Shown piece by piece: positions 24,529 through 61,285 of a stretch of DNA of 64,000 nucleotides (position 1 is its first letter; each line of letters opens with the position of its first letter). Source of the stretch: an uncultured Candidatus Saccharimonas sp. (GTDB lineage Bacteria; Patescibacteriota; Saccharimonadia; Saccharimonadales; AWTP1-31); NCBI GenBank assembly GCA_943354005.1, contig CALRBE010000006.1:11674-75673 (forward strand), written 5' to 3'. The notes under the pieces were generated by a model, which ran no database searches, was not told the origin of the DNA, and worked only from the letters and a program-made list of their open reading frames with translations. The translations under genes and the position numbers were made by a program.

Positions 24529-27500
24529 TTATTTATCTGATGAGTCTGTATTATGGCTTTTTCTGTAATACAGTAAAATTGAACCTGATAAGACTAATCC
24601 AACAATTCCATACCATGAAGACAATATATCACCGGTCTTTCCTAGGGGGCCTCCATTATCTGGTGTAATGTAAACAGAAATTGCACCAAGTACCTCGCTA
24701 AATTCACTGGTAGAACCGTAACCTGTACCTGTATTTGAAAGTGCTGTTGTAGTTGCAGATAATACTTTACCGCTAAGATTTGTTCCCGAAGGAAGCGTTA
24801 TCTCAACATTCTTATTATTACCATTTGTAATATTTGCAGCACCAAGATATGTTCTACCTTCACCATAGCCTGATTCATCAGCTACGTCATTAGAAAATAT
24901 TTCAACGCGATACTGATCATTCAGAGTGCTATCGGCAGCGTCTAAATTTAGATTAACTACCAGAGTGTTGTCTGTCTGCTGTGCACTGTTCAAAACAGGA
25001 AAGTTCTCATAATTATTTGAACCAGTGTCTGGATCTTGGGCATCGTTTAAAGTAGGTCCGATATTAAGGCCACCTACAATATTAAAATTCTCGTCAAGAA
25101 TTAGGCCGCCGCTATCTATTGCTAATCCTGGGAATGAAATGTCAAATACTGTATCGCTATCATTATCAAATATTGAATTGTTTAATATGGAGTTATCGAT
25201 AGGTGCAAGTGTTCCAAATACTGATTCATTAATTAACGAATTGATGAATATTCCTGCGCCCTTATTGCCAGCGATTATATTGCCTGAGCCTGGTGTAGTA
25301 CCACCTATTGTGTTAGAGGTCGCAAGTGCCGATAATATAATCCCAAAATTTTGCGATATAGATGTGTCACTTAATCCATTATCATCAGTACCGATATAGT
25401 TGCCTTGAATAGTATTGTTCGATGACTGATTAGTGAGTCCAATAATTCCAACGTTAGCTAAACCCTGATTACCGCTAATGATATTTCTTTCAGCAGATGA
25501 AGTACCGCCTACTATAGAGTTCGAGGACCCATCGATGGAAATTCCGTAGTTTGAATTATTGAGTACCATAGAGCCCTTAATTATTGTATTATTGACATTG
25601 TCTAGAGATATACCTATATCACTATTGTTATAAATTAAGCTATCAATTATGGATGTGGTAGAACTGGTATTTGTAATCCATATTCCGTCATCGCCGTTCA
25701 TACTTATTTCTATCTCAGAAATAACTACGTTATCTGACTCTGTAATCACTATACCTTCGCTTGAGCTACCCGTAACGACTCCTCCATTGATAATAGCAGC
25801 GTTTGAAAAACTTAGCATGATACCATTGACACCATTATCTTCTATTACATTGTTTCGCATCTCAAATCCATCAGTGATGTCCGCATTTAAACCAGAGTTA
25901 ACATTATTTTTGATGTTGTTACCGGCTTCGATCGTGGTACCTCCTACGGTAATTGAGCTAGAATCATAAATATAAAAACCATACCCATTATTGGTATCTA
26001 CAATGTTACCCTCAAAAACTGTACTAGACGATGAGTATACTGCAACACCATTACTGTTATTTAGACTAATGTTGTTACTGCTCGACCCAGCTCCACCAAC
26101 GGTAATATTGTTACTACCGTCGATCGACAAGCCATTATTAATGTTGCTATTTAATTCATTGCCTTGAATAACAGTATCTGTAACTGTGTTATACAGATCT
26201 ATGCCGTTAGACGCGTTATTATTTGAGGTGTTAGCCTGCACTGTCACATTGGATGATAAGTTGTGTATGCCAATACCGTTGTTATCGTTACCATTTACGG
26301 TATTGCCGGCATTTGTAGCGGTGCCCCCTATAGTAATATCCGTAGAGTTATTCACTTGTATGCCAGTATTGGCATTATCATTCACGGTATTAGACTCTAC
26401 TACTACGAAGGAAGTATTATTTAATAATATACCTGTCGATAGATTAAAGCTCACAGTGTTGCCAGCATTTGTAGCGGTGCCCCCTATATTAATATTGGTA
26501 CCACCGTCTACATTAATTCCGTGAGCAAGGTTAGAATCAATATTGTTACCTTCAATAACTACTCCATCATTGTTGGAGCCAAGATAGATTCCGTCCAATA
26601 CGTTATTTTTGATTATATTTTTGGCTTCTACGGAAGGTCCGCCTATGGTGGCCTCCGTAGAATTCGTTAAAACAATACCACCGCCTCCGTTAGGTATAGA
26701 AGTGGAGCCGTCGGCGCCAACTCCAATATAATTACCTTGTACAACTAATCCATCAGTAATATCTGGTGCTAAGCCGTGAGAATAATTACCTGATAAAACA
26801 TTAGTAGCTCCTGTTTGTATCCCTCCAACTACTACACCCGTACAATTATCAATAGATATGCCGCCTGAATATCCAGGAACTGAGTTGCCCATGGCCACTA
26901 ATCCCGTGGCATCGACACCGATATAATTACCCCTAAATACCCAGCCATCGCCTGGGTATGAAGCTGAATCCTCGTTTCCAGAGATTAGGTTACGATCAGC
27001 AGCATTAAGCCCTCCTATATTTGCGTTTGAACTATTAGTACTGATAAATTCCTCAGCTATTCCAGGCCCTGCGTTACCAAGATCCACTAGGCCAGTAGGA
27101 TCAGTACCAATATAGTTGCCCGCGACAGTCACATTACTGGCACCGATAATGATAGCACCGCCTTCTCCGAACCTATTTATAACAAGACCTCGAACACTAC
27201 TAGACGCACTTCCGCTGCTATTACCGCTAAATAGCAGCGCATAGTTAGCTACGTTCGTGCCGTCAATTTCTATCAATAAAGTACCGTTTAGAGGAGCTGG
27301 TGAAACAGCAGTATTGGCAGATGCTCCAGTCTGAGAATAGCCATTTATATTTACCTGGGATTCAATTGGAGGCAGTGCAGTTAGGGGAGTAATCGTCCTC
27401 ACGCCAGCTCCCGGGATACTGAATACAATGTCGTCAGTTCCCGATCCGGCTGTACATTCGCCAGCTAAGGCACCGGAAACAGAATCTAGGTTAGCTGAAA

Positions 27501-27693
27501 TTATAGCCTCACGTAATGTACATTCACCGTCATTATCTACGTCGTCAGCAGTTGAGTTAACAGTTATAGTTGATGCAGCAAAGGCAATTTTATTAGTCCT
27601 AGCGTTAATGAGTACTGCTGAAATAGCTACCAAAAAAGCAACTACAAAAATGAAACCTAGATAGACCCGTGTGCCAGAAAATTTATTACCCAT
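24529..27693 (-). CDS. large surface protein: signal anchor, CSLREA-type N-terminal motif, about 800 aa of parallel beta-helix (PbH1-like) repeats, C-terminal LPXTG-like anchor
   Basis: The N-terminal TM is VYLGFIFVVAFLVAISAVLI. The CSLREA-type motif is DGECTLREAIISAN. Dozens of repeats of about 22 aa carry N/G/I/T patterns (GNxI..N..xGI). The C-terminus reads PLGKTGD, then a hydrophobic helix, then YYRKSH. Confidence 0.85.
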   Translation of the reverse strand: MGNKFSGTRVYLGFIFVVAFLVAISAVLINARTNKIAFAASTITVNSTADDVDNDGECTLREAIISANLDSVSGALAGECTAGSGTDDIVFSIPGAGVRTITPLTALPPIESQVNINGYSQTGASANTAVSPAPLNGTLLIEIDGTNVANYALLFSGNSSGSASSSVRGLVINRFGEGGAIIIGASNVTVAGNYIGTDPTGLVDLGNAGPGIAEEFISTNSSNANIGGLNAADRNLISGNEDSASYPGDGWVFRGNYIGVDATGLVAMGNSVPGYSGGISIDNCTGVVVGGIQTGATNVLSGNYSHGLAPDITDGLVVQGNYIGVGADGSTSIPNGGGGIVLTNSTEATIGGPSVEAKNIIKNNVLDGIYLGSNNDGVVIEGNNIDSNLAHGINVDGGTNINIGGTATNAGNTVSFNLSTGILLNNTSFVVVESNTVNDNANTGIQVNNSTDITIGGTATNAGNTVNGNDNNGIGIHNLSSNVTVQANTSNNNASNGIDLYNTVTDTVIQGNELNSNINNGLSIDGSNNITVGGAGSSSNNISLNNSNGVAVYSSSSTVFEGNIVDTNNGYGFYIYDSSSITVGGTTIEAGNNIKNNVNSGLNADITDGFEMRNNVIEDNGVNGIMLSFSNAAIINGGVVTGSSSEGIVITESDNVVISEIEISMNGDDGIWITNTSSTTSIIDSLIYNNSDIGISLDNVNNTIIKGSMVLNNSNYGISIDGSSNSIVGGTSSAERNIISGNQGLANVGIIGLTNQSSNNTIQGNYIGTDDNGLSDTSISQNFGIILSALATSNTIGGTTPGSGNIIAGNKGAGIFINSLINESVFGTLAPIDNSILNNSIFDNDSDTVFDISFPGLAIDSGGLILDENFNIVGGLNIGPTLNDAQDPDTGSNNYENFPVLNSAQQTDNTLVVNLNLDAADSTLNDQYRVEIFSNDVADESGYGEGRTYLGAANITNGNNKNVEITLPSGTNLSGKVLSATTTALSNTGTGYGSTSEFSEVLGAISVYITPDNGGPLGKTGDILSSWYGIVGLVLSGSILLYYRKSHNTDSSDK
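26297..26495 (-). repeat. intragenic near-identical 43-nt copies (26297-26339 and 26453-26495), 156 nt apart, encoding I(G)GTATNAGNTV
   Basis: Direct comparison shows a 23-nt identical core, catttgtagcggtgccccctata, with about 38/43 identity overall. Confidence 0.8.
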
Positions 27694-34152: not shown

Positions 34153-34314
34153 CTAGTTACTACTAGCTAAATGCCAGAGACTGCAATATGTACACCTATA
34201 GCTCTTAAGTTTGGCATTATGCTGAAGCTCAGCTACTAGCCCTGCAACGTCTGCTTGTTTCTTAGTGTCAAAGGCTAACTTATCCTGGCAAGGTGTCTTA
34301 GGTGTGCTATCCAT
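34153..34314 (-). CDS. unannotated 53-aa zinc-ribbon-like protein (MDSTPKTPCQDKLAFDTKKQADVAGLVAELQHNAKLKSYRCTYCSLWHLASSN)
   Basis: By my own translation it runs from ATG 34314 to TAG 34155-34153. It starts 43 nt downstream of the PafA-like gene on the same strand. The pattern C..K.AF.T...A....(n)..YxCxxCxxWHL[TS] recalls small Cys4-type proteins seen in actinobacteria and their phages. It is below the ORF-track length cut-off. Confidence 0.5.
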   Translation of the reverse strand: MDSTPKTPCQDKLAFDTKKQADVAGLVAELQHNAKLKSYRCTYCSLWHLASSN

Positions 34315-34357: not shown

Positions 34358-35869
34358 CTAGCTACCTAGTTTTTTAATATAAGATATGGCTTCTATATCT
34401 TCCTGGCCAAGATCAGGTAAATTTACATTATTCAGCTCAATCATTGCAGGTGAACTATCGCCAACAAATACCTTATGCCAGTAGCAATGTTTTGCGAAGT
34501 AATTTTTTAAAAGGTAGGCCCGAGCGTGTGCTCTTGTTTGAGTAGGAGCTTTGTTATAGGCGGTCTGTATTGCTGATTCACTAACCGTGTATTTAAAAGC
34601 GCCTTTTTCACGTAAACGGTACCCGCTTCCACGGCGTACTTGTTCTTTATCATCATCGGGGGATCGTGTGATTCTAACTATGTCATAATTCATATCTGCA
34701 GCCTGCGATGCATAATCTCCTAGCTCTCGTTTAATTCCGAAGCTTCTGTCTCTCTCAATACCGTGTTGAATTACACTTAGTTTTGCTGCCCAATCTGCGC
34801 GATCTGCAAGAATACTAAAATGCTCATCATTCTTATCTACCTTGCGAAGATCTACACAAAAATTCAGCAGTTCCTTTGCGATCGTGTGGTAGCTAATAGG
34901 TAAGTCGGCATACAATTGCAGCTTATCCATAGTAAGGGTAGCTAGTTGCTCCATGAATTCTAGACCCTGTAATTGTGGTTTTGAAAGTAGAATTTCATCT
35001 GAACCTTGTAGGGTTGCCATATTAAGTTCATTTGCTTCTGTTAAAACAGCTTCCTCACTTTTAGTATATTTAAATGACTGTTCTAGTTTTTTGCCAAGAG
35101 GTGTTTGGTAAAGGGCTAATAATAGAGCAACACTGCCTACTCGCATGACAGTTGCCCAATCGGATATATTCTGGTCACTACAACGAATCTCTAATCGACT
35201 ACCGTGTTCTTTATCAGTGCGGTACATAGAACCTGAGTACCCATAGCTATTGACTGAACTAAGACCACCAATTTTTTGAGCATACTCGTAACCGTTTTCA
35301 GTTACAAGGCCTGCACCCATTACTAAAGATCGAGCAGATAGTAAATAGACCAGCGACTGGGGCATCTTTATTCTGTCAATAAACTCTTCTTCGATAGAAT
35401 AGTTATCATGGCAACCTTTTCGATTTCCAAATGCATCTACTACTCGCCGATGCATCCTAATATCTACTTCATTTTTATAATAGTCTGCTTGTTTAAATGC
35501 ATAGTTCTTTAATACTTCTTCAATCAGTACCTCACTACCGCGACTATATTCTGCTAGTTGCCACGGCGATATAGTTTCTGGAGTAGCACGCTCGAGATTT
35601 GTATTATCTTTTGGTACACCGTTAGTGCCTCCAGGATATATACGAGATCCGTTTAATAAGTATTCGTCTTGGCCCTGACCTTTTAATGATCCTGGTAAAT
35701 ACGCACTAAGGCTATCGCACAAGTCGTACGGTTCATCGTATAGCCCGTCGAGCCCTACAAGCAGGCCGGTTTCTTCTTCGGTTCCAATCGCTCTTGGGAA
35801 TGGATAGGTATTTGGCAATGATTCCTGCATTTTTTCAATATAGAACTCTACTGCACCATATGCAAGCAT
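34358..35869 (-). CDS. Pup-ligase/deamidase family protein (PafA/Dop/PafA2-like, glutamine-synthetase fold)
   Basis: 503 aa. Several blocks line up with my recollection of M. tuberculosis PafA. The N-terminal block is RAIGTEEETG (cf RIMGIETEFG). The others are NGSRIY, GNRKGCHDNYSI (cf GNSYGCHENYLI), SLVMGAGLV (cf QLICGAGKV), RLEIRCSDQNISD..MRVGSVALLLALYQ (cf RLHVIVGDSNMSE..LKVGTAALVLEMIE), DMNYDI (cf DLAYHDI) and PTQTRAHARAYLL (cf PQTTRARLRGEFI). Confidence 0.75.
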   Translation of the reverse strand: MLAYGAVEFYIEKMQESLPNTYPFPRAIGTEEETGLLVGLDGLYDEPYDLCDSLSAYLPGSLKGQGQDEYLLNGSRIYPGGTNGVPKDNTNLERATPETISPWQLAEYSRGSEVLIEEVLKNYAFKQADYYKNEVDIRMHRRVVDAFGNRKGCHDNYSIEEEFIDRIKMPQSLVYLLSARSLVMGAGLVTENGYEYAQKIGGLSSVNSYGYSGSMYRTDKEHGSRLEIRCSDQNISDWATVMRVGSVALLLALYQTPLGKKLEQSFKYTKSEEAVLTEANELNMATLQGSDEILLSKPQLQGLEFMEQLATLTMDKLQLYADLPISYHTIAKELLNFCVDLRKVDKNDEHFSILADRADWAAKLSVIQHGIERDRSFGIKRELGDYASQAADMNYDIVRITRSPDDDKEQVRRGSGYRLREKGAFKYTVSESAIQTAYNKAPTQTRAHARAYLLKNYFAKHCYWHKVFVGDSSPAMIELNNVNLPDLGQEDIEAISYIKKLGS

Positions 35870-35906: not shown

Positions 35907-36545
35907 CTAGGGGTTATAAACAGCCTGAGTTACATACTGAATATTAACAACTGCACCAATTGCTGCTGCCGTTGAAGCTAGGACATCACTACCTATCTTA
36001 ACCATTGACTGATCAGCATTATATTTTTCTGTTGAAGCTATAGCATAGCCGCCAATTGCTGCCCATTGTAGTAACGTAGTTATCTTGCCCTCAGCGGAAG
36101 GGTGTAACTCGGTACCACGTTTCTTTGAGAGGGCAGTAGCAGCAGTGTTAATAATATTTTGAGAAAGGAATGAAGCGGAGGCAAGAGAGGGCAGGGTATT
36201 TGTTTTAGACATAACGTAGAGGCCATGCGCCATACTAATCTTATCCACCGTCGCGTCTACGGCTTCACCTAAAGGACTTTTTGTTTTAGTCCGCTCAGCG
36301 ACATAGCCATCTGCAATATCACAAAGACGACCAGAAATTACTTTAGTTATAGCTTTTTTCTTGTCTCCCCTTTTAAAATCTTGGAGGCCTGAGATCGTTA
36401 GGGCTAGTCCTGCAATACTGATTGCATTGGCTGGGGTAATAACACCGTGAGTTTTTTTAGCTACTTTTTGCCAGATATTTTGCATGCTTTCAGGAGTTCG
36501 CTCCCACTGAGGATTATCGTCGGTTCGATGTAGGTTCATAATCAT
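35907..36545 (-). CDS. CDP-alcohol phosphatidyltransferase family membrane protein
   Basis: The motif DIADGYVAERTKTKSPLGEAVDATVDK approximates D(x)2DG(x)2AR(x)7-8G(x)3D(x)3D, and hydrophobic helices are present. I chose ATG 36545 as the start (the track starts at TTG 36563). It lies 37 nt upstream of the PafA-like gene. Confidence 0.7.
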   Translation of the reverse strand: MIMNLHRTDDNPQWERTPESMQNIWQKVAKKTHGVITPANAISIAGLALTISGLQDFKRGDKKKAITKVISGRLCDIADGYVAERTKTKSPLGEAVDATVDKISMAHGLYVMSKTNTLPSLASASFLSQNIINTAATALSKKRGTELHPSAEGKITTLLQWAAIGGYAIASTEKYNADQSMVKIGSDVLASTAAAIGAVVNIQYVTQAVYNP

Positions 36546-36561: not shown

Positions 36562-36592
36562 AAAAAAACTCGAACTAAATATTCGAGTTTTT
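36562..36592 (-). terminator. intrinsic terminator directly after tmRNA 3-prime end
   Basis: The hairpin is ACTCGAA (36568-36574), a 7-nt loop, then TTCGAGT (36582-36588). On the minus strand it is followed by T7. It is symmetric, with an A-run and a T-run. Confidence 0.75.
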
Positions 36593-36593
36593 A

Positions 36594-36998
36594 TGGTGGA
36601 GCTGGCGGGTACTGCCCCCGCGTCCGTCAGTTAACGTACTCAATGACTACAGGCTTAGTTTATCTTATGCTACTTAGGCTACAATCCTAGAGATAAACAA
36701 AACAGAAAGTAGCTGCAACCCTAAAGCTTAGGTAGAAAAGGGGGTAACCAGATCTACAGCAATCAGATAATATGGCGCTTGAAAGACTCTATCTGATGTC
36801 GAGTCAAAAGCGGCAACCAAAGATTAGGCTGCTGTTGCGAATGCTGGTGTTGGGAAAAGCTTTGCAGCTAGTTCCTTGATCAGCGATTCGCGATCAGTTG
36901 TTTTTGCAACTATTTGGTTAATCCGGCTAACGTGCAGATTAATCCGGCCTGCCATTTGAGTTTGTTAAGGTCCAACGTCGAGCTTAAAATTCAGCCCC
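36594..36998 (-). ncRNA. ssrA: tmRNA (ssrA), about 405 nt, one-piece
   Basis: The minus-sense 5-prime end is GGGGCUGAAUUUUAAGCUCGACG. The 3-prime end is GGACGCGGGGGCAGUACCCGCCAGCUCCACCA, identical to E. coli except for the T-loop. The acceptor stem is GGGGCUG/CAGCUCC with G3:U70. The resume context AAAUAGUU-GCA lies at 36907-36905. The tag reading frame runs 36907..36824 and encodes AKTTDRESLIKELAAKLFPTPAFATAA followed by a stop. Confidence 0.9.
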
Positions 36999-48773: not shown

Positions 48774-50840
48774 ATGATTAGGATCTTTATGAACAATATG
48801 AATAGGAAAAACCTCAAGAAACGTACTCTATTTACAAAGCCCAAAATACTAGCCTTATTGTTGTTTGCTGCTGTCGGATCATGGCTAATCTATACGTCTT
48901 TTGCGGCTACAACCAGCAACTTTAAGCACCCCGGTGTATTATTATCCAAAGGTCAAATTGATTTTATTAAAGCTAAAGTCAACACTAGTGAACAGCCGTG
49001 GAAATCTGCATTTGATCAAATGAGTGGCGGATTCCTCGCATCAAAAAACTATGTTCCAAAGCCAGTACCAAAATTACAATGTACAACAAGCGGATTGGTC
49101 AATGCATACCCTCAGCTAGGTTGTACAGATTTGAATAATGATTCTGCCGCTGTTTACACCCAAGCACTTATGTGGCAACTCACTGGAGATCAAGCCTATG
49201 CAAATAAAGCCGTAGAGATTATGAACGCCTGGTCATCAACCCTCAAAGAAGCCCCACTTGATGACCCAAATGGATCAGACCCCAAGAATGATGCTGAGTT
49301 CTTCCAGAATAGACTGCTTCTAGGCTGGTCTGCAGAGTCAATGGTACGCGGAGCAGAAATAATTCGCCATTCAAATGCAGGTTGGAAACAAGGAGATATT
49401 GATAAATTTGAAAATATGCTCAGGACGATTTACTACCCACAACTCTCACAAGGCTGGACTGGCTCAAACAATGGAGGAGCGACTTGGGCAGATGGATTAG
49501 TTAACATGGGTGTTTTCTTAAATGATAAAGACATATACGACATGGGGATCCAGCACTGGAAGCAAAATACACGCTCTATGGTCTACCTAAAAACTGACGG
49601 TAATCTACCATTGCCTTACTTATCTCCCCGAGATAATAAATATAAGGTAATAAGTTATTATTCTCCTACTCAGTACGTTAATGGATTAGAGGGTGAAACA
49701 TGCAGAGACATGGGTCACACATTCATGGGTCTTGGTGCTATGACCAACGTGGCTGAAACATCATATATTCAAGGGACGCACGACCTTTACTCAGATCCTG
49801 AGTTTAAAGAGCGCTTTATTGCTGGTTACGAGCTAAACGCAGGCTACGTAAATGAACTGCTAGATTATATGGCTGCTAATAACATAACCGACACGACACT
49901 ATTCGACGATAATCCAAGTAGTAGCCCACGTAATGCAACGATTGCTAATTGGAAACCAGTAAACTTTCCCTGTAATGACTTTAAAGTAGGTGGCAGTAGC
50001 GCTTTTCTGGGTAACGAAATTGCTCTAAACCATTTCTCTAATCGCCTAAATATTGCTATGCCTAACACTAAAAAATTGGCTGAAAGAAAACGTCCTCAAA
50101 AGGGAGGGAACCACCTTTTTTACGAGACCCTTACTCATGCCAACACGGGAAATGCGGGGATTACTCCAACTGTAATTGTACCGCCTCCAGCTCCTTTGCC
50201 GGATACGACAATGGCCTTGAATGGCGTTACTCAAGGGTCACTGGTTAGCTCTCCGATACGGCTGAGCGCTGTTGTTACGAATGCTCCTAATTTTGATCGT
50301 ATAGAGTTTAAGGTAGATGGCATACTAATTAATACTGAAAGAACTGCTCCATACTGTCTTTCAGGTGACGCGAACGGAGTATGTAACGATTACACAGTTG
50401 CTGCAGGCACACACACAGTCACTGCAACCCTCTTCTACGACACATCGAAGACTATTACTAAAGATGTTTCCTTTACGGTTTCTCAGCCTCCTGTAGTGAT
50501 ACCACAGGATACTACTGCTCCGACGCCTCCTACCAATATAACGCGTGCTTTCCGAACTGATTTGGCTAACTTCCGTTACGTTCTAAATCTTAAATGGACA
50601 GCATCTCAAGATAACGTAGGCGGAACAGGAATCAAAGAATATCAAATTCGCAGAAACGGAAAGTTGATTGGCATAAATAGCCCTACTTCCACATCCTTCG
50701 CTGACACTACCATAGGAGTCAATATAGCCTACACTTACAGCATAATCGCAATAGATGGAGCCACGCCGCCGAATGCATCAACTCCAGTTACAACAACCGT
50801 GAAAGCATCATGTGTCTTAGTTTGGTGTAGTATAAAGTAG
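48774..50840 (+). CDS. secreted alginate-lyase-family (PF05426-like) polysaccharide lyase-like protein with C-terminal Ig-like and fibronectin type III domains
   Basis: The signal anchor is ILALLLFAAVGSWLIYTSFA. The core reads FKHPGVLLSKGQIDFIKAKV..EQPWKSAFDQM .. AAVYTQALMWQLTGDQAYANKAVEIMNAWSSTL. The FN3 region is DTTAPTPPTNI..LKWTASQDNVGGTGIKEYQIRRNG..YTYSIIAIDGA. ATG 48789, preceded by AGGA, is an alternative start. Confidence 0.7.
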   Translation: MIRIFMNNMNRKNLKKRTLFTKPKILALLLFAAVGSWLIYTSFAATTSNFKHPGVLLSKGQIDFIKAKVNTSEQPWKSAFDQMSGGFLASKNYVPKPVPKLQCTTSGLVNAYPQLGCTDLNNDSAAVYTQALMWQLTGDQAYANKAVEIMNAWSSTLKEAPLDDPNGSDPKNDAEFFQNRLLLGWSAESMVRGAEIIRHSNAGWKQGDIDKFENMLRTIYYPQLSQGWTGSNNGGATWADGLVNMGVFLNDKDIYDMGIQHWKQNTRSMVYLKTDGNLPLPYLSPRDNKYKVISYYSPTQYVNGLEGETCRDMGHTFMGLGAMTNVAETSYIQGTHDLYSDPEFKERFIAGYELNAGYVNELLDYMAANNITDTTLFDDNPSSSPRNATIANWKPVNFPCNDFKVGGSSAFLGNEIALNHFSNRLNIAMPNTKKLAERKRPQKGGNHLFYETLTHANTGNAGITPTVIVPPPAPLPDTTMALNGVTQGSLVSSPIRLSAVVTNAPNFDRIEFKVDGILINTERTAPYCLSGDANGVCNDYTVAAGTHTVTATLFYDTSKTITKDVSFTVSQPPVVIPQDTTAPTPPTNITRAFRTDLANFRYVLNLKWTASQDNVGGTGIKEYQIRRNGKLIGINSPTSTSFADTTIGVNIAYTYSIIAIDGATPPNASTPVTTTVKASCVLVWCSIK

Positions 50841-50863
50841 ATAAATATATTTGGGGGGGTGTA

Positions 50864-51964
50864 GTGATTCATAAGAATAATAAAAAACAGATAGAAGATG
50901 AGCAAATTAATGTCAGTAACCCCAGGATAATTAGCAGTGTTATTCTTATTGCCCTCGTCATTTTTGCAGTATTTTACTTCATAAATAACAGCAATAAAAA
51001 AACAGCCACACCCGAGCAGCCAGTTACTGTCAGCAACCCCGAGCCCAGTAGTCCTACGGTACCGGATAGTACTACAGAAGCTTCAACTGCCACAGAAACG
51101 AATCCTACTACAGCCACAAGGAATAGGACCGTAAGAGTCTCGACAGTTGCATCACCGGATACTAAAACTCCAGTCCCTGATCCAGTTGTTTCATCGCCGC
51201 AAATTGTTAATTCAGACAGAACAGTATCGGCTGACCTAACTGGATTAACGCAAATTGATTTAACTGGCATTGATGATGCGGGATATGGCTCAGAATCTCC
51301 AATACCTGGAGTAGTTGACGATAGCTTCATACAAATTCCTATGGCAGGAAATAGCTTTAATTTTTTTGGAACAAATTATGGTACCGCGGATACGGTCTAT
51401 TGGAACTCGAATAATGCACTGGCTTTCGGTTCAGGATTTAGTCCATATACAGTAAGTATATCTAGCGACACAGCACCAGCAATTCTATTGGGTAATTACG
51501 ATAGGTTAACATCAGATATTTACTATTCTCATTCAACAAGTGCCGACAGCAATTTCAATATAACAAAAATACTTGTCAAATTTTCAGACTATTATACTGA
51601 TACTTCGAATCTAGATGCTGGTATATATCAAATTAGGCTAATAAAAGAGGTTTCGGGAGAAAAGAGACAATGGATTGAAGTTTCAATAATTTCTAGCCCT
51701 CCTTCCCCAGGATACTCAAATAACCTTACTGTTAGCTATCCATCCGGCGTTAACGGCTCAGGTCAACCACAAGATTCAAATGGTCTTGAAATAGATGCTA
51801 CTAAGGACTCTCCTTATAACATCACCGACGGAGTGACCTTCCTGAATCCATTGGGTACACTTTACTCATCTGCAAGCCCTGCTGCTGGAACAAGCTTCAT
51901 ATTGCAGAGCGATGAGCTAGGTAATGCCTGGACCTTCACAAATAACTCATACGTAAACTTATAG
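50864..51964 (+). CDS. hypothetical secreted/anchored protein (366 aa)
   Basis: It has a GTG start with a G-rich SD (GGGGGGTG). The TM is ISSVILIALVIFAVFYFI. A PT/ST-rich linker is followed by a globular domain. I recognise no family. Confidence 0.6.
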   Translation: MIHKNNKKQIEDEQINVSNPRIISSVILIALVIFAVFYFINNSNKKTATPEQPVTVSNPEPSSPTVPDSTTEASTATETNPTTATRNRTVRVSTVASPDTKTPVPDPVVSSPQIVNSDRTVSADLTGLTQIDLTGIDDAGYGSESPIPGVVDDSFIQIPMAGNSFNFFGTNYGTADTVYWNSNNALAFGSGFSPYTVSISSDTAPAILLGNYDRLTSDIYYSHSTSADSNFNITKILVKFSDYYTDTSNLDAGIYQIRLIKEVSGEKRQWIEVSIISSPPSPGYSNNLTVSYPSGVNGSGQPQDSNGLEIDATKDSPYNITDGVTFLNPLGTLYSSASPAAGTSFILQSDELGNAWTFTNNSYVNL

Positions 51965-52038
51965 AGAACCGCAATGTTTTTTTAAGTAATTATGTTTGTG
52001 TGTTATTATTATGAAATCACTAACCATAAGGATAATAA

Positions 52039-53469
52039 ATGGCAAAAACAAAAAATAATAAATTATCGATGTTAAGCAGTAAACGTAACATATCAATCTT
52101 GCTTATAGTTATCATTGCAGCTTTCGGTGCCTGGAGAGTTTTCCTAAGTGGAGCCTCACCAAATAACTGTCAGCCTGAAAAAGGTGTTAATATATGCGAT
52201 ATAGATCAAGTACAAGGACTTGTTGATAACATACTTAGCAACGGACCAGAAGCTCAAAATCTTGGGAAAGACACAGCAAATTGGCCCTTATACTTTGGAG
52301 CAGCTTTTAGAGCTCCAACGAGCCCACTAGACGGAGCACAGCCGGTATATAGGGTTTATAATGGCAACGCTACATGGCATGATTATATGTTTGAAGCTGG
52401 GAAGAGAGATAAAGAAGCTAAAGCTCCTGGCCAGGTAACCAACGAGGGAATAGCTTTTTATGCGTGGCCTAGCGCTAGTCGGCCCGGACTTGTACCCGTC
52501 TACCGTTTAACACAAGGCGGCGCAGGATCTAAAGTCATATTCACAACCGATAGAGCCTGGAGAGATAAGTTCGTTGCAGCAGATATTAATAACAGTGCTG
52601 GGTGGAAAGATGGTGGTGTACCATTTTATGCTTTCCCTCCAAACTACCAAGCAATAGCGCCAGACAACAAACCTCAGGCTAATCCCAATGACTGTTCCAT
52701 AAGAGAGAACTTTGTTAGCGACAGGTGTACAGGTGCACGTAACGCTCTTAATGATGCTGTGGCCAACGGAAACGTTGCTGCTAGCAATGATTGTCCTACG
52801 ACTCTAGCGGCATACATTAAAGAAGCGTTTCCAAGTCGCTTCCCTCAGGCGTGTCAAGATAAGTGGAATAAAGAGCAGTCTAACTGTTCCATAAAAGAGA
52901 ACTTCGTTAGCGACAGGTGTCGAGATGCACGAGCAGCGTTTGAAAAAGCAGAAGAAGAACGTATAGCCCGTGAGAATGCAGAGAGACAAGCAGCAGCAGC
53001 GCAACAAAACAGAAGCACCGGATCAGGAAGAAACACTGGCGGCGGCGGCGGTGGTGACGGTGGCGGCGGTGGTGGCGGCGGTGGTGGCGGCGGCGGTGGT
53101 GACGGTGGCACAGATTGCAGTAAACCTCAGTATTTTTATACAGACGCGTGCAAAGAATCAAGAGATAATTTTCTTGCTAACGCGATTACTGGAATATTTT
53201 CTCTTCCTCCAGGGGGAGGGGGAAACAACTCCTCAGGACGACGAGCCTATAACTGCGTTGTTACCTATACCCTAGGCGGCGGCTTCGGTTTAGGACGTAT
53301 TGCAAACCAACAGAAACGAGAAGAATTCAGTATTACAGCAGTCAACCGTCAACAAGCCTACAACACATGCTTATCACGTTTCAGAAGCCAATTCAGAGTA
53401 GTACGCGGAAGACTCGTAGCGGGCTGGGCACAAGGTGAAGTATCAAACATTAGAGTAACAATAAAGTAG
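52039..53469 (+). CDS. hypothetical secreted protein: DUF5648-like repeats, duplicated CSI(R/K)ENFVSDRC motif, poly-Gly tract, C-terminal domain
   Basis: An AAGGA SD lies upstream. The signal anchor is ISILLIVIIAAFGAWRVFL. The repeats are PVYRVYNGN..HDYM..EGIAFYAWP and PVYRLTQGG..FTTD..GWKDGGVPFYAFP. The Gly tract is G6-D-G14-D-G2. Confidence 0.65.
   Translation: MAKTKNNKLSMLSSKRNISILLIVIIAAFGAWRVFLSGASPNNCQPEKGVNICDIDQVQGLVDNILSNGPEAQNLGKDTANWPLYFGAAFRAPTSPLDGAQPVYRVYNGNATWHDYMFEAGKRDKEAKAPGQVTNEGIAFYAWPSASRPGLVPVYRLTQGGAGSKVIFTTDRAWRDKFVAADINNSAGWKDGGVPFYAFPPNYQAIAPDNKPQANPNDCSIRENFVSDRCTGARNALNDAVANGNVAASNDCPTTLAAYIKEAFPSRFPQACQDKWNKEQSNCSIKENFVSDRCRDARAAFEKAEEERIARENAERQAAAAQQNRSTGSGRNTGGGGGGDGGGGGGGGGGGGGGDGGTDCSKPQYFYTDACKESRDNFLANAITGIFSLPPGGGGNNSSGRRAYNCVVTYTLGGGFGLGRIANQQKREEFSITAVNRQQAYNTCLSRFRSQFRVVRGRLVAGWAQGEVSNIRVTIK
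52693..52920 (+). repeat. two 36-nt near-identical copies (52693-52728, 52885-52920) encoding CSIRENFVSDRC / CSIKENFVSDRC
   Basis: Direct comparison of tgttccataagagagaactttgttagcgacaggtgt with tgttccataaaagagaacttcgttagcgacaggtgt gives 34/36 identity. Confidence 0.85.
53038..53109 (+). repeat. GGC/GGT simple-sequence tract (24 codons; 12-nt unit ggcggcggtggt repeated, 21-nt ggcggcggtggtgacggtggc at both ends)
   Basis: The tract is visible directly in the sequence. It is strongly GC-rich against the AT-rich background. Confidence 0.95.
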
Positions 53470-53476
53470 GAGTTTC

Positions 53477-53890
53477 ATGAAAAACAAAATTATATTATTA
53501 GTTTCCGCTATCTTGATAATCGTAGTAAGTATATTGAGTACTAGCTACTTAGTAAATCGATCTATAGATAGCAGTTACAACAAAAGCTACGATGCAGCAA
53601 AATTAGTAGTTAACGATGTTCTTGCGAACAAACTAGAAGATGCTTATACGCAGCTTTCTGTAACTGGAAAAGAAAATCAATCAAATGATGATTTCGTTAA
53701 ATCAGCTCAGGGTGCCAAATTAGAATCTGGAGATTCAAAATATTATCTTCAGTATATGGGTCAAACTAGTAATAGTATTATTACTTTTACTATTACCGAC
53801 AAGGAAGGCGTTACTATCGGTACAATATACACTGCAGTATCTGCGCAAAAAGATGGCAAATGGCAGGTTGACGATATTCGATTCTTCTAA
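53477..53890 (+). CDS. hypothetical N-terminally anchored protein (137 aa)
   Basis: An AGGAG SD lies 6 nt upstream. The TM is IILLVSAILIIVVSILS. It is the last gene of the plus-strand cluster. Confidence 0.55.
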   Translation: MKNKIILLVSAILIIVVSILSTSYLVNRSIDSSYNKSYDAAKLVVNDVLANKLEDAYTQLSVTGKENQSNDDFVKSAQGAKLESGDSKYYLQYMGQTSNSIITFTITDKEGVTIGTIYTAVSAQKDGKWQVDDIRFF

Positions 53891-53919
53891 TGATAGAGTA
53901 TTAGACACCTAATCATTAA

Positions 53920-53949
53920 AAATGACCCATACGTATGGGTCATTTTTTA
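53920..53949 (+). terminator. intrinsic terminator ending the plus-strand cluster
   Basis: The hairpin is ATGACCCATA-cg-TATGGGTCAT (53922-53943), followed by TTTTTT. Confidence 0.85.
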
Positions 53950-53960
53950 TTATAAGCATA

Positions 53961-54035
53961 TGGTGATCCCAAGGAGAATCGAACTCCTATTGCCAGGATG
54001 AAAACCTGGTGTCCTAACCGTTAGACGATGGGACC
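53961..54035 (-). tRNA. tRNA-Glu (anticodon UUC), CCA encoded
   Basis: The minus-sense sequence is GGTCCCATCGTCTAACGGTTAGGACACCAGGTTTTCATCCTGGCAATAGGAGTTCGATTCTCCTTGGGATCACCA. The cloverleaf folds by hand with a 7-bp acceptor stem, anticodon loop TTTTCAT and a canonical T-loop TTCGATT. Confidence 0.95.
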
Positions 54036-54109
54036 ACGTATCTGTTTATAACCAAAATATTATACCATAACAATCACGTTTATTACAGTCCTATATTATC
54101 CAATGTGAG

Positions 54110-54118
54110 TGCTATTAT
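54110..54118 (+). promoter_or_regulatory. extended -10 (TGCTATTAT) 6 nt upstream of lnt GTG; leaderless geometry
   Basis: The sequence reads TGC-TATTAT (54113-54118)-agataa-GTG(54125). Confidence 0.4.
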
Positions 54119-54124
54119 AGATAA

Positions 54125-55555
54125 GTGTATAAGAAGATATTAACCTTAATTAATTCGCCAAGATCGTTACTTTTATTTGGATTTGGCTTAACTGGTTTAT
54201 CGCTCATTACTTTTAGTTATTCTTGGATCGTACTTTTTAGCCTTATTCCAATATTAATGTATCTTATGAAAAGTAAGGGTCTCAGCCGAAAGCAGATTAC
54301 GCTAGACTTCTATTTAGGTGGGTTCATCCTTTGTGGATTTGCTAATATATTTCTCTTTCAGATGTCGCCCGAAAATTGGGGTATTGGGTTAAACGGATGG
54401 ATTACAGTTGTAGCCAGAGCTATTGCATGGGTCCTAGTTTGCAGCTTTAGTGCATTAGCCTATGGGGCCCTTGGATATTGCTTGTCCAGTATAAAGTTGG
54501 CGGATAGACGCATATATATCCTGCCCCTTCTGTTTCCTGTAGCTGAAGTTCTACGCAGCTACCTATTCGCGGTAATGGCATATGGACCTGACGGAAGCTT
54601 GAGTCCAAACTTTAACTGGGGATCTTTGGCAGTTCCGGCTTCAGGAACAATATTAGTATATAGTTCACGCATTGTTGGCTTCTTCGGACTAACATTTATT
54701 ACTGTTCTTGTTAACTTGGCTTTGTTCTTATTAATTAAACGTAGAGTATATCCTTCCCTGATGATATTGTGTGCTATTGCATTAGTAACTACTCTTGGAT
54801 GGAAAATGGGAGAAAGTCAGCAAACTTCAAGAAAGATACTAGTTAGTTCCGTACATTTGTCCGAGACAGATGATATGAAGACGACTGATAAAACTCTATC
54901 TCCACCGAGTGGCACGGATATTCTAGTACTGCCAGAATATTCCGGCATAGAACAGAATAAGCAAGTCTCAAAGTATTTAAGTCCTCTTTCCAGTAATGGT
55001 GTAGCAATTACCAGTATAGTGAACGGTAGAAGTCCTAAGGGAACGAACCGTATTATATATCTGTCTAGGGATGGTCGAGTAATTGAGAGGCAGGATAAGA
55101 CATTCCTAATTCCTACTGGTGAGCTTCTTCCCTACAGTCTCCAGGCTTCTTTTAAGACTATTGGACGAAGTTCGATTAATGAAGATTTCCGATATACGCA
55201 GCAGCTAGAGCGAGGCAAGCAACTAGAGCGTGTATATGTGACTAAAGATGGTATAGCTATTGGAACACTAGCCTGCAGTGGAGTAAGTGCTTTGAATGAA
55301 TATAGCCGCCTGACCAACGAAGGGGCTGATGTACTGGTTAATACTGCTTCCTTGGCATTCTTACAGCCAAATAGCTTGTATCATGTCTACGCCCGTAATA
55401 TGGCTCGCTTTCAAGCTGTTTCCAATAACCGACCCTTCGTGCAGTCTAGCCGTAGCGGACAAAGTTATATATTAGATAATCAGGGAAAGACTCTAGTAGA
55501 ATCTTCTGGCCAGAACAACCAAATATTATCTGCAGAAGTATTTATAAGGCAATAA
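54125..55555 (+). CDS. lnt: apolipoprotein N-acyltransferase-like protein (multi-TM N-domain plus CN-hydrolase domain)
   Basis: It has about 7 TM helices followed by catalytic-triad contexts ILVLPEYSG (Glu), DKTFLIPTGELLP (Lys, cf E. coli YDKHHLVPFGEFVP) and IGTLACSG (Cys). Confidence 0.8.
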   Translation: MYKKILTLINSPRSLLLFGFGLTGLSLITFSYSWIVLFSLIPILMYLMKSKGLSRKQITLDFYLGGFILCGFANIFLFQMSPENWGIGLNGWITVVARAIAWVLVCSFSALAYGALGYCLSSIKLADRRIYILPLLFPVAEVLRSYLFAVMAYGPDGSLSPNFNWGSLAVPASGTILVYSSRIVGFFGLTFITVLVNLALFLLIKRRVYPSLMILCAIALVTTLGWKMGESQQTSRKILVSSVHLSETDDMKTTDKTLSPPSGTDILVLPEYSGIEQNKQVSKYLSPLSSNGVAITSIVNGRSPKGTNRIIYLSRDGRVIERQDKTFLIPTGELLPYSLQASFKTIGRSSINEDFRYTQQLERGKQLERVYVTKDGIAIGTLACSGVSALNEYSRLTNEGADVLVNTASLAFLQPNSLYHVYARNMARFQAVSNNRPFVQSSRSGQSYILDNQGKTLVESSGQNNQILSAEVFIRQ

Positions 55556-58420: not shown

Positions 58421-59227
58421 TTAGCGTAAGCGAGCTACTGCCTCAGCCATAGAATTATCTGCTACAGAGTGATTAAATCCTTCCACTTCACGGGGTGTTG
58501 CAATGATATTAGCAACACTCATGCCTAACCCTGTCAACTGATCAGTTAAAACCTGATGTCGTTGAGCTAATCGACTATTAATATCGTCAAGTTGTGATAG
58601 TTTGGAAGTATCAACCTCATACCCACTACCGAGACTAAGTACCCCAATATTTGCAGGTAATCTTCGTTCTAGTTGATGGTTAACTATTACCCCTATTGCA
58701 GGAGTGACTGCTACATCTTCAGGTTGGAACCGAGAAAAGTCACTAATCATGATTGTGAGGCCTCTACGGCACAAATCCGAAGCATCCTTATCGCTGTTAA
58801 GTCTTGTAAAACGTGTACGTTGCTCATCAATACCGTCAGTGTTGGCACCAGGAAGAGTAAATAGTCTCACCCTATCACTTGACTGCGAAAGATCTTGGTG
58901 CAAAAGTCGACTAATAGTGGCCGCTACACGCTCTTTCTTTAGAACAATACGAGGATCGCTGTCTTGTTCAAAATTACCGAGTATTACATTTGTCTGTAGT
59001 TGCCGGCCGGGCTGTACCTGACGAGAGTAGTGCTGACCTAATACTTCACCTAAGAAAGAAACTGGGTTAATATCTGCAGCAGTATGCTCTCCGTGGGCAA
59101 ATTCAGTATCAGCTGCTACATTACCAATTCGTCCGACTTCTTCGCGCCGAACAAGATGACTCCCGATACCTAAACGAAGATTTGGGGGTAAACGTGTAAG
59201 TTCAGCGGTGGTTTTTGAAAAATACAT
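58421..59227 (-). CDS. DUF58-like protein (MoxR-associated)
   Basis: Its position after a MoxR ATPase and the motif region GSHLVRREEVGRIGNVAADTEFAHGEH recall the DUF58 pattern G.H.SRR.G.G.EF...R.Y. An AGGAG SD lies upstream. The assignment is weak. Confidence 0.5.
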   Translation of the reverse strand: MYFSKTTAELTRLPPNLRLGIGSHLVRREEVGRIGNVAADTEFAHGEHTAADINPVSFLGEVLGQHYSRQVQPGRQLQTNVILGNFEQDSDPRIVLKKERVAATISRLLHQDLSQSSDRVRLFTLPGANTDGIDEQRTRFTRLNSDKDASDLCRRGLTIMISDFSRFQPEDVAVTPAIGVIVNHQLERRLPANIGVLSLGSGYEVDTSKLSQLDDINSRLAQRHQVLTDQLTGLGMSVANIIATPREVEGFNHSVADNSMAEAVARLR

Positions 59228-59251
59228 ATGTACTCCTATATTCTCAATCTG

Positions 59252-60250
59252 TTAGGCTGTGCTCGAAAGGATTTGAGAAACTATCGCAGGACCGCGATTA
59301 ACTGCATCGCTATGCGCCATTCCGACTCGAGCCGAGATGATCATTCCCATAGCGTGGTTAACAGCCTCATCGTTAACAACTGTTTCGCCACTCAATATCG
59401 TAATTACACGAGCTAATTTACGTGCTTGTACGCTAATTCGCTCTTCGCCGTCGTCTAGGTTTACTTCATCCCACAACGCATCAGAAACGTCTACTGACAT
59501 CTCAGCAATTTTGCGGTCGAGACTTTGAGGTATCTGCTTAAAAGAAGCTTCTCGGCGCATCTTATGGATTGTTGCTAAATCAGTTATAGGCTCTATCTTG
59601 CCACCCTTTGGTAATTCACCAATTCGGACAACATTATCTACTCGCATTGCTCTGTCGCCGCGATCAAATATTGCACCGACGGAAAAACGTGAGACCGTAG
59701 CATGAGCAACAGGTTGAGTAACTTCAAACGCTTCGTGTGGGTTCATCGTAGCCACTGCATACTCAAGATTCGGTACATTACGTGCACCGGCGAGCGTTAC
59801 AATACGGCGTGATTCAAGCATTCCAAGTAAACTTTCTGTGGTCTTTGCTGATCCACGGTTTACCTCATCTAGAACAACAGCTTGTGTCCCTTCGTTAATA
59901 AGTCCAGGAAGTGTTGTTTTTGAACGCTCTAAAGTTGTAACACCATCAGCGCTTGTAACTTCTTTCTCAAAAACACTTTCACCACCAATGAGTTGCATTC
60001 CAGTCAAGTCATTTTGAATAGGTATTTCTGTAACGTTTTCATCATAAATGTCGTGCACTAGGTTTGGTAGCGCTAAGGCAAGTTCGGTCTTGAATTTACC
60101 GGTACCACCTGCGAATACACCATTCACTCCTGCGGCAAGCATAACAATACCTGCGAACTTAGCGTGTTCACGGCCTATCATTACATTGCCAATTTGGCTC
60201 ATTGCTTCACTTACAAATTCTCTTCCGTATGCTTGTTCTGTAGTACTCAT
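59252..60250 (-). CDS. MoxR-like AAA+ ATPase with atypical P-loop
   Basis: Walker B is VVLDEVNRG, sensor-1 is ATMNP, and VSRF is present (cf MoxR LDRF). The Walker A region reads AGGTGKFKT, where Phe replaces the usual Gly before Lys-Thr. Confidence 0.75.
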   Translation of the reverse strand: MSTTEQAYGREFVSEAMSQIGNVMIGREHAKFAGIVMLAAGVNGVFAGGTGKFKTELALALPNLVHDIYDENVTEIPIQNDLTGMQLIGGESVFEKEVTSADGVTTLERSKTTLPGLINEGTQAVVLDEVNRGSAKTTESLLGMLESRRIVTLAGARNVPNLEYAVATMNPHEAFEVTQPVAHATVSRFSVGAIFDRGDRAMRVDNVVRIGELPKGGKIEPITDLATIHKMRREASFKQIPQSLDRKIAEMSVDVSDALWDEVNLDDGEERISVQARKLARVITILSGETVVNDEAVNHAMGMIISARVGMAHSDAVNRGPAIVSQILSSTA

Positions 60251-60259
60251 AATTTCTCC

Positions 60260-61177
60260 TTAATTGCTGACTTTCTTATAGGTTGGTTCTCTGCGTCGAT
60301 TCTTGAAACCAGTAATAAATAGGCCCACTCCTGCTATTCCAGCTGCAATTTTTAATGGCCATCTGTTTGGTTGATCTTGTTTCAAATTGTTATCTTCGAG
60401 TGTACCTTGAATAGTGTCGACCATCTTGTCTGTTTTGTCGGCATCAACGTCCCAATATTTACCACCGGTTTCTTTTGCAACTTTTTTAAGCTGCTCTACT
60501 ATTACGGGGTTAGAATCACCTTCTACATTAGCTACAAAAAATGGTATTTCTTGGGCATCAGCAGCTGCAATAACTGCATCGGCAGAGCCTGGTTCGTTTC
60601 CATTCGTTATAATAAATATACCAGATTTATTTTCTCCAATATTTCCCGTTTCACTTTTTATCTTTAGTGCCTCAGCAAGTGCTAGTGTATATGCTTGGTC
60701 AAGTGGTGCATCACCAAATGGCTCAGTTTCGGCAACCATAGAAGGTTCCATAGGATTTACTTCGCTATATGCCGCTACATAGGCAGTTGCATTGAAATCT
60801 TCGCTATCAAACATAGTAGCCATTGTATTTACCCCTTCAAGCGCCTTGCCTTGGACGGCTCCTGAGTGGTCAACAACAACCCCTAGATACGGAGCGGTCT
60901 CTTGAGTTGCTTCAGTTTGCCACGCAAGTCCGTTGAGCATTCCTACGGATATACCAGCAACGACTAATGTAGCTCTTCCTGTTCGAGCAAAACGCGAGAC
61001 TAGGCTTCCGCGTGAAGTCTCAGCGATACCAATATCGTTAAGCTCTGAAGCAAGTGCCTTTTCATCAATACCTATTTGCCTAACAGCTACAGTTTCAATA
61101 CCCATACCGGCAATAGCGCCTGCTGCTGCACCAATATACGGTAAATATTCAACTCCTTGAGTGATAATTTCTGACAT
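60260..61177 (-). CDS. membrane-anchored von Willebrand factor A-like protein (BatA-like)
   Basis: It has two N-terminal TMs and one C-terminal TM. The central vWA-like fold starts at LGVVVDHSGAVQG (a MIDAS-like DxSxx, degenerate). I trimmed the start to ATG 61177 because of the promoter geometry. Confidence 0.65.
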   Translation of the reverse strand: MSEIITQGVEYLPYIGAAAGAIAGMGIETVAVRQIGIDEKALASELNDIGIAETSRGSLVSRFARTGRATLVVAGISVGMLNGLAWQTEATQETAPYLGVVVDHSGAVQGKALEGVNTMATMFDSEDFNATAYVAAYSEVNPMEPSMVAETEPFGDAPLDQAYTLALAEALKIKSETGNIGENKSGIFIITNGNEPGSADAVIAAADAQEIPFFVANVEGDSNPVIVEQLKKVAKETGGKYWDVDADKTDKMVDTIQGTLEDNNLKQDQPNRWPLKIAAGIAGVGLFITGFKNRRREPTYKKVSN

Positions 61178-61184
61178 GATACAT

Positions 61185-61213
61185 ATACTACAACAGAAGT
61201 GCATTTTTGTCAA
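61185..61213 (-). promoter_or_regulatory. consensus-like sigma70 promoter, leaderless geometry for the vWA-MoxR-DUF58 operon
   Basis: The minus-sense layout is TTGACA (61213-61208), a 17-nt spacer, TAGTAT (61190-61185), atgtatc, then ATG(61177). Confidence 0.6.
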
Positions 61214-61285
61214 TATTATTCTGCTAATGGTAGTGATGCTAAGCTAAGTTAGTGCTTAAGTTTATTTTTTAGGGGTAGAAGTGTG

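Follow-up and report, generated by a model that had tools for sequence, protein, structure and literature searches.

The enzymes of pupylation, the Pup ligase PafA and the depupylase Dop, are thought to have been derived from GCS2-like ligases within Actinobacteria, and they travel with Pup in every described lineage (PMC2588565). In all lineages then known, Pup invariably adjoins a PafA gene (Iyer et al., PMC2588565), and no family other than PafA/Dop has the C-terminal domain of these enzymes (PMC12053664; PMC8599861). For the active site, the motifs GhExE, [HQ]x[NH], Ex[RK]x2D and [QH]x4D have been defined (Iyer et al. 2008, PMC2588565), among which ExRx2D is the motif of the superfamily, of the glutamine synthetase/GCS type, and [QH]x4D is the motif of PafA (PMC2588565). 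The present analysis concerns a Pup_ligase-family gene of an uncultured Candidatus Saccharimonas sp., located at 34358..35869 on the minus strand of a 64,000-nucleotide (nt) stretch of DNA (assembly GCA_943354005.1, contig CALRBE010000006.1, positions 11,674 to 75,673), the whole of which is referred to as the window. The gene is an intact open reading frame (ORF) of 503 amino acids (aa), with its stop codon at 34358-34360, and its product is a real, very divergent member of the Pup_ligase family in the broad sense, an ortholog of neither PafA nor Dop. It falls in a distinct branch of the family, composed mostly of Saccharimonadia among its named members, which carries a glutamate-containing strand-6 motif and is called E-type here; within this branch, the protein belongs to a subtype with glycine at the position of the catalytic aspartate (Gly subtype).

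Family membership is evident from profile searches. Over residues 68-460, the protein matches Pfam PF03136 (Pup_ligase) with 106.5 bits (cut-off 25; E=2.2e-30). A preliminary description of this DNA, made from its letters alone, had assigned the protein to the family on account of PafA-like blocks, namely RAIGTEEETG, GNRKGCHDNYSI, VMGAGLV, RLEIRCSDQNISD, DMNYDI and PTQTRAHARAYLL, and every one of these blocks is located in the 503-aa translation. It had also placed the protein in a reduced genome, and the genome is indeed that of a Candidatus Saccharimonas metagenome-assembled genome (MAG); GCA_943358135.1, a MAG of Candidatus Saccharimonas, and related freshwater assemblies encode the identical protein amid the same genes. 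Orthology to PafA or Dop, a question raised at the same time, is answered in the negative, because the protein is equally distant from the two enzymes (~20-25% identity to both) and its scores lie far below both NCBIfam equivalog cut-offs, with 67 bits against 551.3 for PafA (TIGR03686) and 64.5 bits against 492.3 for Dop (TIGR03688). Similarity to both enzymes is detected at E values of ~1e-9 from the single sequence and ~1e-29 from a profile of the family, and searching the PDB with this profile recovers PafA and Dop alone, both at ~1e-29. The profile alignment spans residues 11-459 of PafA, C-terminal motifs included, and begins at residue 70 of Dop.

The fold is predicted to be that of PafA and Dop. 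An AlphaFold2 model of the 503-aa protein, with a predicted local distance difference test (pLDDT) score of 89.9 and a predicted template modelling score (pTM) of 0.90, was compared by Foldseek with known structures and gave a template modelling (TM) score of 0.70 to both PafA 4BJR and Dop 7OXY over ~500 columns, whereas the next fold class, YbdK/GCS2, reached 0.33-0.35. The predicted structure thus recovers the PafA/Dop two-domain fold, in keeping with the preliminary assignment, and the PafA/Dop-type C-terminal domain is present in the protein. The Dop-loop, an insertion of 40-65 residues before strand 2 in Dop (4B0R, 7OXY), is absent, as it is from PafA (4B0T, 4BJR): E33 and N73 are separated by 40 residues, versus ~44 in PafA and ~77 in Dop. 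The GCS2/YbdK ligases (1R8G, 1TT4), which have been proposed as ancestors of Pup ligases, share the superfamily chemistry and the Ex[RK]x2D strand-6 motif with the protein, but they are single-domain enzymes of ~370 aa that lack the PafA/Dop C-terminal domain, and there is no sequence match between the two: no Pfam GCS2 match to the protein was obtained at E<=0.01. A sequence-level bridge to GCS2 or glutamine synthetase was also sought with the family profile against the PDB and was discarded, no such match being returned at E<=10. A connection of the ligase with anti-phage defence or with phages was considered as well and dropped, as neither PADLOC nor PHROGs gave a match.

Most of the catalytic apparatus of the family is kept, all motifs being encoded on the minus strand. 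The ATP- and Mg-binding residues retained comprise the GhExE motif, two strand glutamates, the HxN motif, the Arg-x-Tyr nucleotide clamp and the strand-5 arginine, and these features are shared with PafA. On strand 1, the GhExE Mg/ATP motif reads G29-T-E31-E-E33 (35771..35785), with E33 invariant and E31 nearly invariant across the family. It is followed, in the register of the profile alignment, by N73-G-S-R76-I-Y78-P-G80-G81, an inserted loop and T90-N91-L-E93-R-A-T-P-E98 (35576..35653), where R76 and Y78 occupy the position of the nucleotide-binding pair and align to R90 and Y92 of Dop; E98 is invariant and E93 nearly so. The [HQ]x[NH] phosphate/metal motif of strand 4 is H154-D155-N156 (35402..35410), with H154 nearly invariant and D155 invariant, in place of the HEN of PafA, and a QR of PafA is likewise QK in this protein. 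In the C-terminal region, the profile alignment places the motifs D392-x2-Y-D, G414-x-G-Y-x-L-R, P442-x2-T-R446-A-x2-R and W464 (34361..34696); R446 is invariant, W464 aligns with W453 of Dop, and the motifs DWxxK, YxD and P..TRA..R, together with W464, are common to the protein and PafA/Dop.

Strand 6 is where the protein departs from the known pupylation enzymes toward the superfamily form. The strand 5/6 segment R225-L-E227-I-R229-C-S-D232-Q-N234 (35168..35197) conforms to Ex[RK]x2D as E227-x-R229-x2-D232, and the [QH]x4D form of PafA/Dop (RLHV..GD; HxIxGD in PafA) is absent. E227, R229, D232 and N234 are invariant across the family and R225 is nearly so. In an alignment of 200 sequences, which included Dop and PafA of Micrococcus and two Fimbriimonadales homologs, Glu227 is present in 193, and 186 of them also have Arg229, where PafA/Dop have His and Ile, respectively; the remaining 7 sequences, of the PafA/Dop type, have His at position 227. 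The corresponding residue of Dop, H241, hydrogen-bonds the catalytic phosphate (PMC8599861), so that its exchange for Glu227 alters the active site itself.

A further departure affects the catalytic aspartate itself. In the profile alignment, which is anchored on 'NGSRLYLD' of PafA and 'NGARLYVD' of Dop, the segment R76-I-Y78-P-G80 is in register with R90-L-Y92-V-D94 of Dop and R-L-Y-L-D of PafA, so that Gly80 stands at the position of the catalytic Asp and the R-x-Y-x-D motif is broken. The nucleotide is held in Dop by R90 and Y92, and D94 is the most probable activator of the water used in hydrolysis (PMC8599861); in PafA, the equivalent residue is D64 in the numbering of 4BJR, and that crystal complex of PafA with Pup was obtained with the D64N mutant. 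Across the 193 E-type sequences, Gly occupies position 80 in 110 and Asp in 63. A second Gly and an extended loop come after Gly80 in most cases; the median distance between the Tyr and the following Mg-binding Glu is 15 residues in the Gly subtype versus 8. In a neighbour-joining tree, which contains family members only and has no outgroup from outside the family, the Gly subtype constitutes a crown group (121 sequences, of which 100 have Gly), and the basal branches hold mainly Asp forms. The Gly subtype has conserved residues of its own, namely G81, T90, N91 and R94, and the invariance or near invariance of the ligand residues argues against simple decay. The inserted loop is the least confident core part of the model (pLDDT 70 for residues 81-90). 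A conserved acidic loop residue that could substitute for the catalytic Asp was looked for and discounted, as no loop position exceeds ~40% D+E.

The branch is large. A word-indexed search gave 90 relatives, of which all those with an organism name are Saccharimonadales or are labelled just 'bacterium', and when 1.84 billion representatives were searched exhaustively with the profile, 309 clusters (50% identity) reached E<1e-30, the scores forming a smooth gradient from 650 bits downwards. Matches in genome collections are to Saccharibacteria, Saccharimonadia and Patescibacteria MAGs, with the exception of one MAG labelled Limnocylindrales and one unclassified chromosome of 1.9 Mb. In the neighbour-joining tree, the 193 E-type sequences stand apart from the 7 sequences of PafA/Dop/UBact type. 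The latter type includes two Fimbriimonadales homologs (L029 and L030), which represent the Gram-negative lineages with a Pup-like, UBact-type tag. They are likewise Pup_ligase-family members from outside Actinobacteria, but their Asp is canonical (YND) and their strand 6 reads RLHV..GD, neither of which is found in the Saccharimonas protein.

The genomic surroundings of the family were searched for partners of the known systems. A Pup hidden Markov model built from Micrococcus loci and the UBact-like ORF of the Fimbriimonadales locus L029 served as queries against six-frame stop-to-stop translations of the whole window and of 47 Saccharimonadia-type loci, which reach 4-10 kb around the ligase and fall into 31 groups at 90% identity, the group representatives totalling 407 kb. 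As positive controls, pup was found beside ligase genes in 7/7 Micrococcus loci, with dop and pafA on either side of it in M. luteus (L027), and a small UBact-like ORF ending ...RQRSGE was found directly downstream of the ligase gene in L029; no such ORF is present in the loci of the Saccharimonadia family. In the window and the 47 related loci, no Pup or UBact match was obtained at E<1 and no ORF ends in GG[QE]. The window and the first 25 related loci are likewise without an ARC/Mpa homolog, and no proteasome or Pup Pfam family is represented among the window gene products scanned or on record. The scans thus bear out the preliminary description, which had reported the window to be free of Pup, proteasome and ARC/Mpa genes and of ORFs ending in GGQ or GGE. 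The ligase is single-copy, with one match per locus and no second Pup_ligase paralog in the window, and the nearby ORFs with a terminal Q or E belong to no recurring family.

Recurrent partners of other kinds were also sparse. All-against-all clustering of genes within 4 kb of the ligase identified no neighbour shared by more than 11 of the 31 groups. The commonest is a NUDIX hydrolase, in 11/31 dereplicated loci, followed by BipA; the recurrence of both is synteny within one subclade, although in a second clade (L018) the NUDIX gene also directly adjoins the ligase. The loci with NUDIX are L009-L013, L045, L047-L050, L061 and L018, and its gene is co-directional with the ligase in L018 but divergent in loci of the L009 type. 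Because these genomes encode many NUDIX paralogs, the adjacency may be due to chance. Separately, a gene for a 127-aa protein with a helical end, ...LEAALEELQ, lies directly downstream of the ligase at the locus of one distant relative (L003 11632-12015, L004 1729-2112); it is a single case that is not conserved elsewhere.

The explanation favoured for these observations, with somewhat better than even confidence, is that the protein is a Pup-independent, ATP-dependent, carboxylate-activating ligase of the PafA/Dop architectural type. Such an enzyme would bind ATP and Mg and phosphorylate a carboxylate to an acyl-phosphate, a chemistry suggested by the conservation of all ATP/Mg-binding and phosphotransfer residues, and the acyl group would then be transferred to an amine. 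To our knowledge, all characterised carboxylate-amine ligases of this fold form an acyl-phosphate. As for the donor, there is a tentative leaning to the carboxylate of a peptide or of a protein other than Pup, because the C-terminal domain and the motifs specific to PafA/Dop are conserved, but a small-molecule substrate of the gamma-glutamyl type is nearly as likely, being favoured by the ExRx2D motif and by the lack of a small-protein partner at the loci. The replacement of the Asp by Gly-Gly and a longer, variable loop implies that the second half-reaction must differ from those of PafA and Dop; in the Gly subtype, this step may use a different nucleophile, may take its base from the substrate or a partner, or may be omitted in favour of phosphotransfer only. 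The preliminary description had suggested a ligase or deamidase acting on a different carboxylate. Its ligase half agrees with the reading favoured here, while its deamidase half has lost ground, as the D94 of Dop is Gly80 in the protein and there is no Dop-loop.

Other explanations have been weighed against the same evidence. The protein might be a canonical pupylation enzyme, Pup ligase or depupylase, with Pup, and possibly proteasome partners too, encoded elsewhere in the genome or diverged beyond recognition. The names assigned by NCBI and JGI ('Pup--protein ligase', 'PafA2 family protein', 'proteasome accessory factor A') suggest as much, as do the PafA/Dop C-terminal domain and the retained DWxxK, YxD, P..TRA..R and W464, and the genome is covered for 64 kb only. 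However, the scores fall ~485 and ~430 bits under the PafA and Dop equivalog cut-offs, the Asp needed by both enzymes is Gly and the phosphate-contacting His is Glu. Moreover, no Pup or UBact gene was found within 4-10 kb in 47 loci, whereas adjacency is the rule in pupylating lineages and in the control loci, and each locus has one paralog rather than a dop/pafA pair; this explanation is considered unlikely. Since the Asp is needed for either of the activities known in the family, its replacement by Gly in 110 of the 193 E-type sequences, next to a lengthened loop (median 15 versus 8 residues) that has no positionally conserved acidic residue, might instead point to a pseudoenzyme in the Gly subclade, catalytically dead or repurposed as a nucleotide-binding regulator or scaffold. 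Yet metal and nucleotide ligands are invariant or nearly so across this subtype, and the newly conserved G81, T90, N91 and R94 indicate an active site that has been remodelled rather than one that is decaying. We also know of no requirement for a catalytic Asp in other ligases of the fold, such as those of the GCS types, which counts against a pseudoenzyme, and this account is held to be as improbable as the canonical one.

It is also conceivable that the enzyme binds or processes the Pup, or the pupylated proteins, of an actinobacterial host. In culture, Saccharibacteria live as epibionts of Actinobacteria (PMC10633639), which are the chief pupylating phylum; the family is concentrated in Saccharimonadia, and no Pup gene of its own was found near the ligase. 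But the ~20-25% identity to actinobacterial PafA/Dop and the separate, deep clade speak against a recent transfer from host to epibiont, the catalytic Asp is absent, and secretion-related neighbours do not recur. In addition, a transposon sequencing study of the host-associated Saccharibacterium Southlakia epibionticum contains no Pup, PafA or proteasome terms in its text or in 8 of its supplementary files. Action on host Pup is regarded as very unlikely, the least credible of the explanations considered.

The favoured reading, a Pup-independent ligase, also faces difficulties of its own. The negative results cover the 64-kb window and the related loci, and other parts of the genome may yet encode a Pup-like protein, 20S proteasome subunits or an ARC ATPase. 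The loss of the catalytic Asp at Gly80 could mean that the enzyme no longer ligates anything. The choice between a protein and a small molecule as the donor is drawn from architecture. The placement of Gly80, Glu227 and Arg229 comes from sequence alignment. Finally, ExRx2D could be a reversion instead of the ancestral state, the tree being without an outgroup.

The gene neighbourhood is conserved among close relatives only. Upstream of the ligase gene lies a gene for a CDP-alcohol phosphatidyltransferase (35907..36539, minus strand; Pfam PF01066, E=2e-14), which ends 37 nt from it, and downstream, after 43 nt, begins an ORF for a 53-aa zinc-ribbon-like protein (34153..34314, minus strand; C9, C41, C44 and H48), which is a member of a conserved family. 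Beyond the phosphatidyltransferase gene is the transfer-messenger RNA (tmRNA) gene ssrA (36594..36998, minus strand). These spacings and the proximity of ssrA are as the preliminary description gave them. The proposal that phosphatidyltransferase, ligase and zinc-ribbon genes form an operon or module was, on the other hand, rejected: the order phosphatidyltransferase-ligase-zinc-ribbon ORF-metG is kept only in relatives with at least 58% identity, and relatives at or below 46% have unrelated genes beside the ligase. The arrangement is genus-level synteny, not a functional unit, and the co-occurrence of the trio that the preliminary description had pointed to is limited to close relatives, the zinc-ribbon gene being found elsewhere without the ligase.

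The zinc-ribbon family comprises 46 clusters, all from Saccharimonadales where named, with a core PCxDKLAFDTKKQA...YxCxxCxLWHL in which C...CxxC..H is invariant; its only PHROG matches are weak ones, to 3424 and 15216. An alternation of N and D at its C-terminus in close relatives, reminiscent of the Q/E of Pup, prompted the idea that the 53-aa protein is a Pup analogue. This idea was abandoned. Across the 46 clusters, the C-terminal tail varies in length and its final residue is D, N, V, S, A or others, which leaves no fixed reactive terminus of the kind that a Pup-like tag must have; furthermore, in other Saccharimonadales (L036-L040) the gene adjoins metG, upstream of it, with no ligase at that position. 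The phosphatidyltransferase scores well under all NCBIfam equivalog cut-offs. Its longest ORF encodes 218 aa from a TTG at 36563, but the terminator hairpin of the tmRNA (36592-36564, minus strand) overlaps this TTG, for which reason the ATG at 36539, giving 210 aa, is probably the start. The tmRNA was detected by Rfam (RF00023, 81.3 bits) and missed by ARAGORN. A promoter-like site precedes it (37053-37024, minus strand; 11/12 positions matched), and a putative tag peptide may be encoded in frame within the ORF 36824-36955, ending ...PAFATAA.

The remainder of the window contains housekeeping genes, including metG, tatD, a cysteine desulfurase gene, mnmA, pgk, tpi and pyk, as well as uvrA, uvrC and genes for a photolyase and exonuclease I. 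The sole AAA protein found in it is a MoxR-like AAA_5/AAA_3 ATPase (59252-60250), which belongs to a minus-strand block at 58421-63505 and is flanked by two ORFs without a Pfam match (58421-59227 and 60260-61213); after these comes a histidine kinase whose N-terminal region is of the 7TM kind (61286-63505). A 1054-aa protein of the beta-helix/NosD type (24529-27693, minus strand), which may be a surface protein, is encoded in the stretch of lowest GC content, 0.367 over 24-26 kb versus ~0.41 elsewhere. Within the otherwise minus-strand window, a block of plus-strand genes at 48774-55555 encodes an alginate-lyase-like protein with Big_7, a DUF5648 protein and a 476-aa protein with a CN_hydrolase domain; it includes a local change of GC-skew sign at 52-56 kb and a minus-strand tRNA-Glu gene (53961-54035).

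Recognition of the family is not new, because automatic pipelines have already made it, and its members are present in NCBI and JGI under names such as 'Pup-ligase protein'. However, no paper that links Saccharibacteria, TM7 or Patescibacteria to Pup or pupylation was found in the literature searched, and what appears to be new is how large the clade is, its concentration in Saccharimonadia among named members, the absence of an adjacent Pup gene, a strand-6 motif of ancestral type and the Asp-to-Gly subtype. Automatic naming as 'Pup--protein ligase' or 'PafA2 family' probably claims too much for these genes and could mislead metabolic reconstructions of Patescibacteria. The clade stands out because it spans hundreds of 50%-identity clusters and combines the PafA/Dop architecture with an older active-site motif and no adjacent Pup, and because most of its named members are Saccharibacteria, the cultivated ones of which grow on Actinobacteria. 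A more speculative view, possible but doubtful at present, holds that the Saccharimonadia clade is a surviving pre-Pup form, in which the C-terminal domain was already present, the glutamine-synthetase-type ExRx2D was kept, and a novel ATP-dependent modification is carried out. If so, these ultra-small episymbiotic bacteria would possess a new reaction for tagging proteins or peptides, or a new amide-forming step, and the Gly subtype would rely on a nucleophile or base unlike that of any known family member. Thus, the clade raises two testable questions, one on the origin of the Pup ligase and the other on the role of a Pup-ligase fold without Pup.

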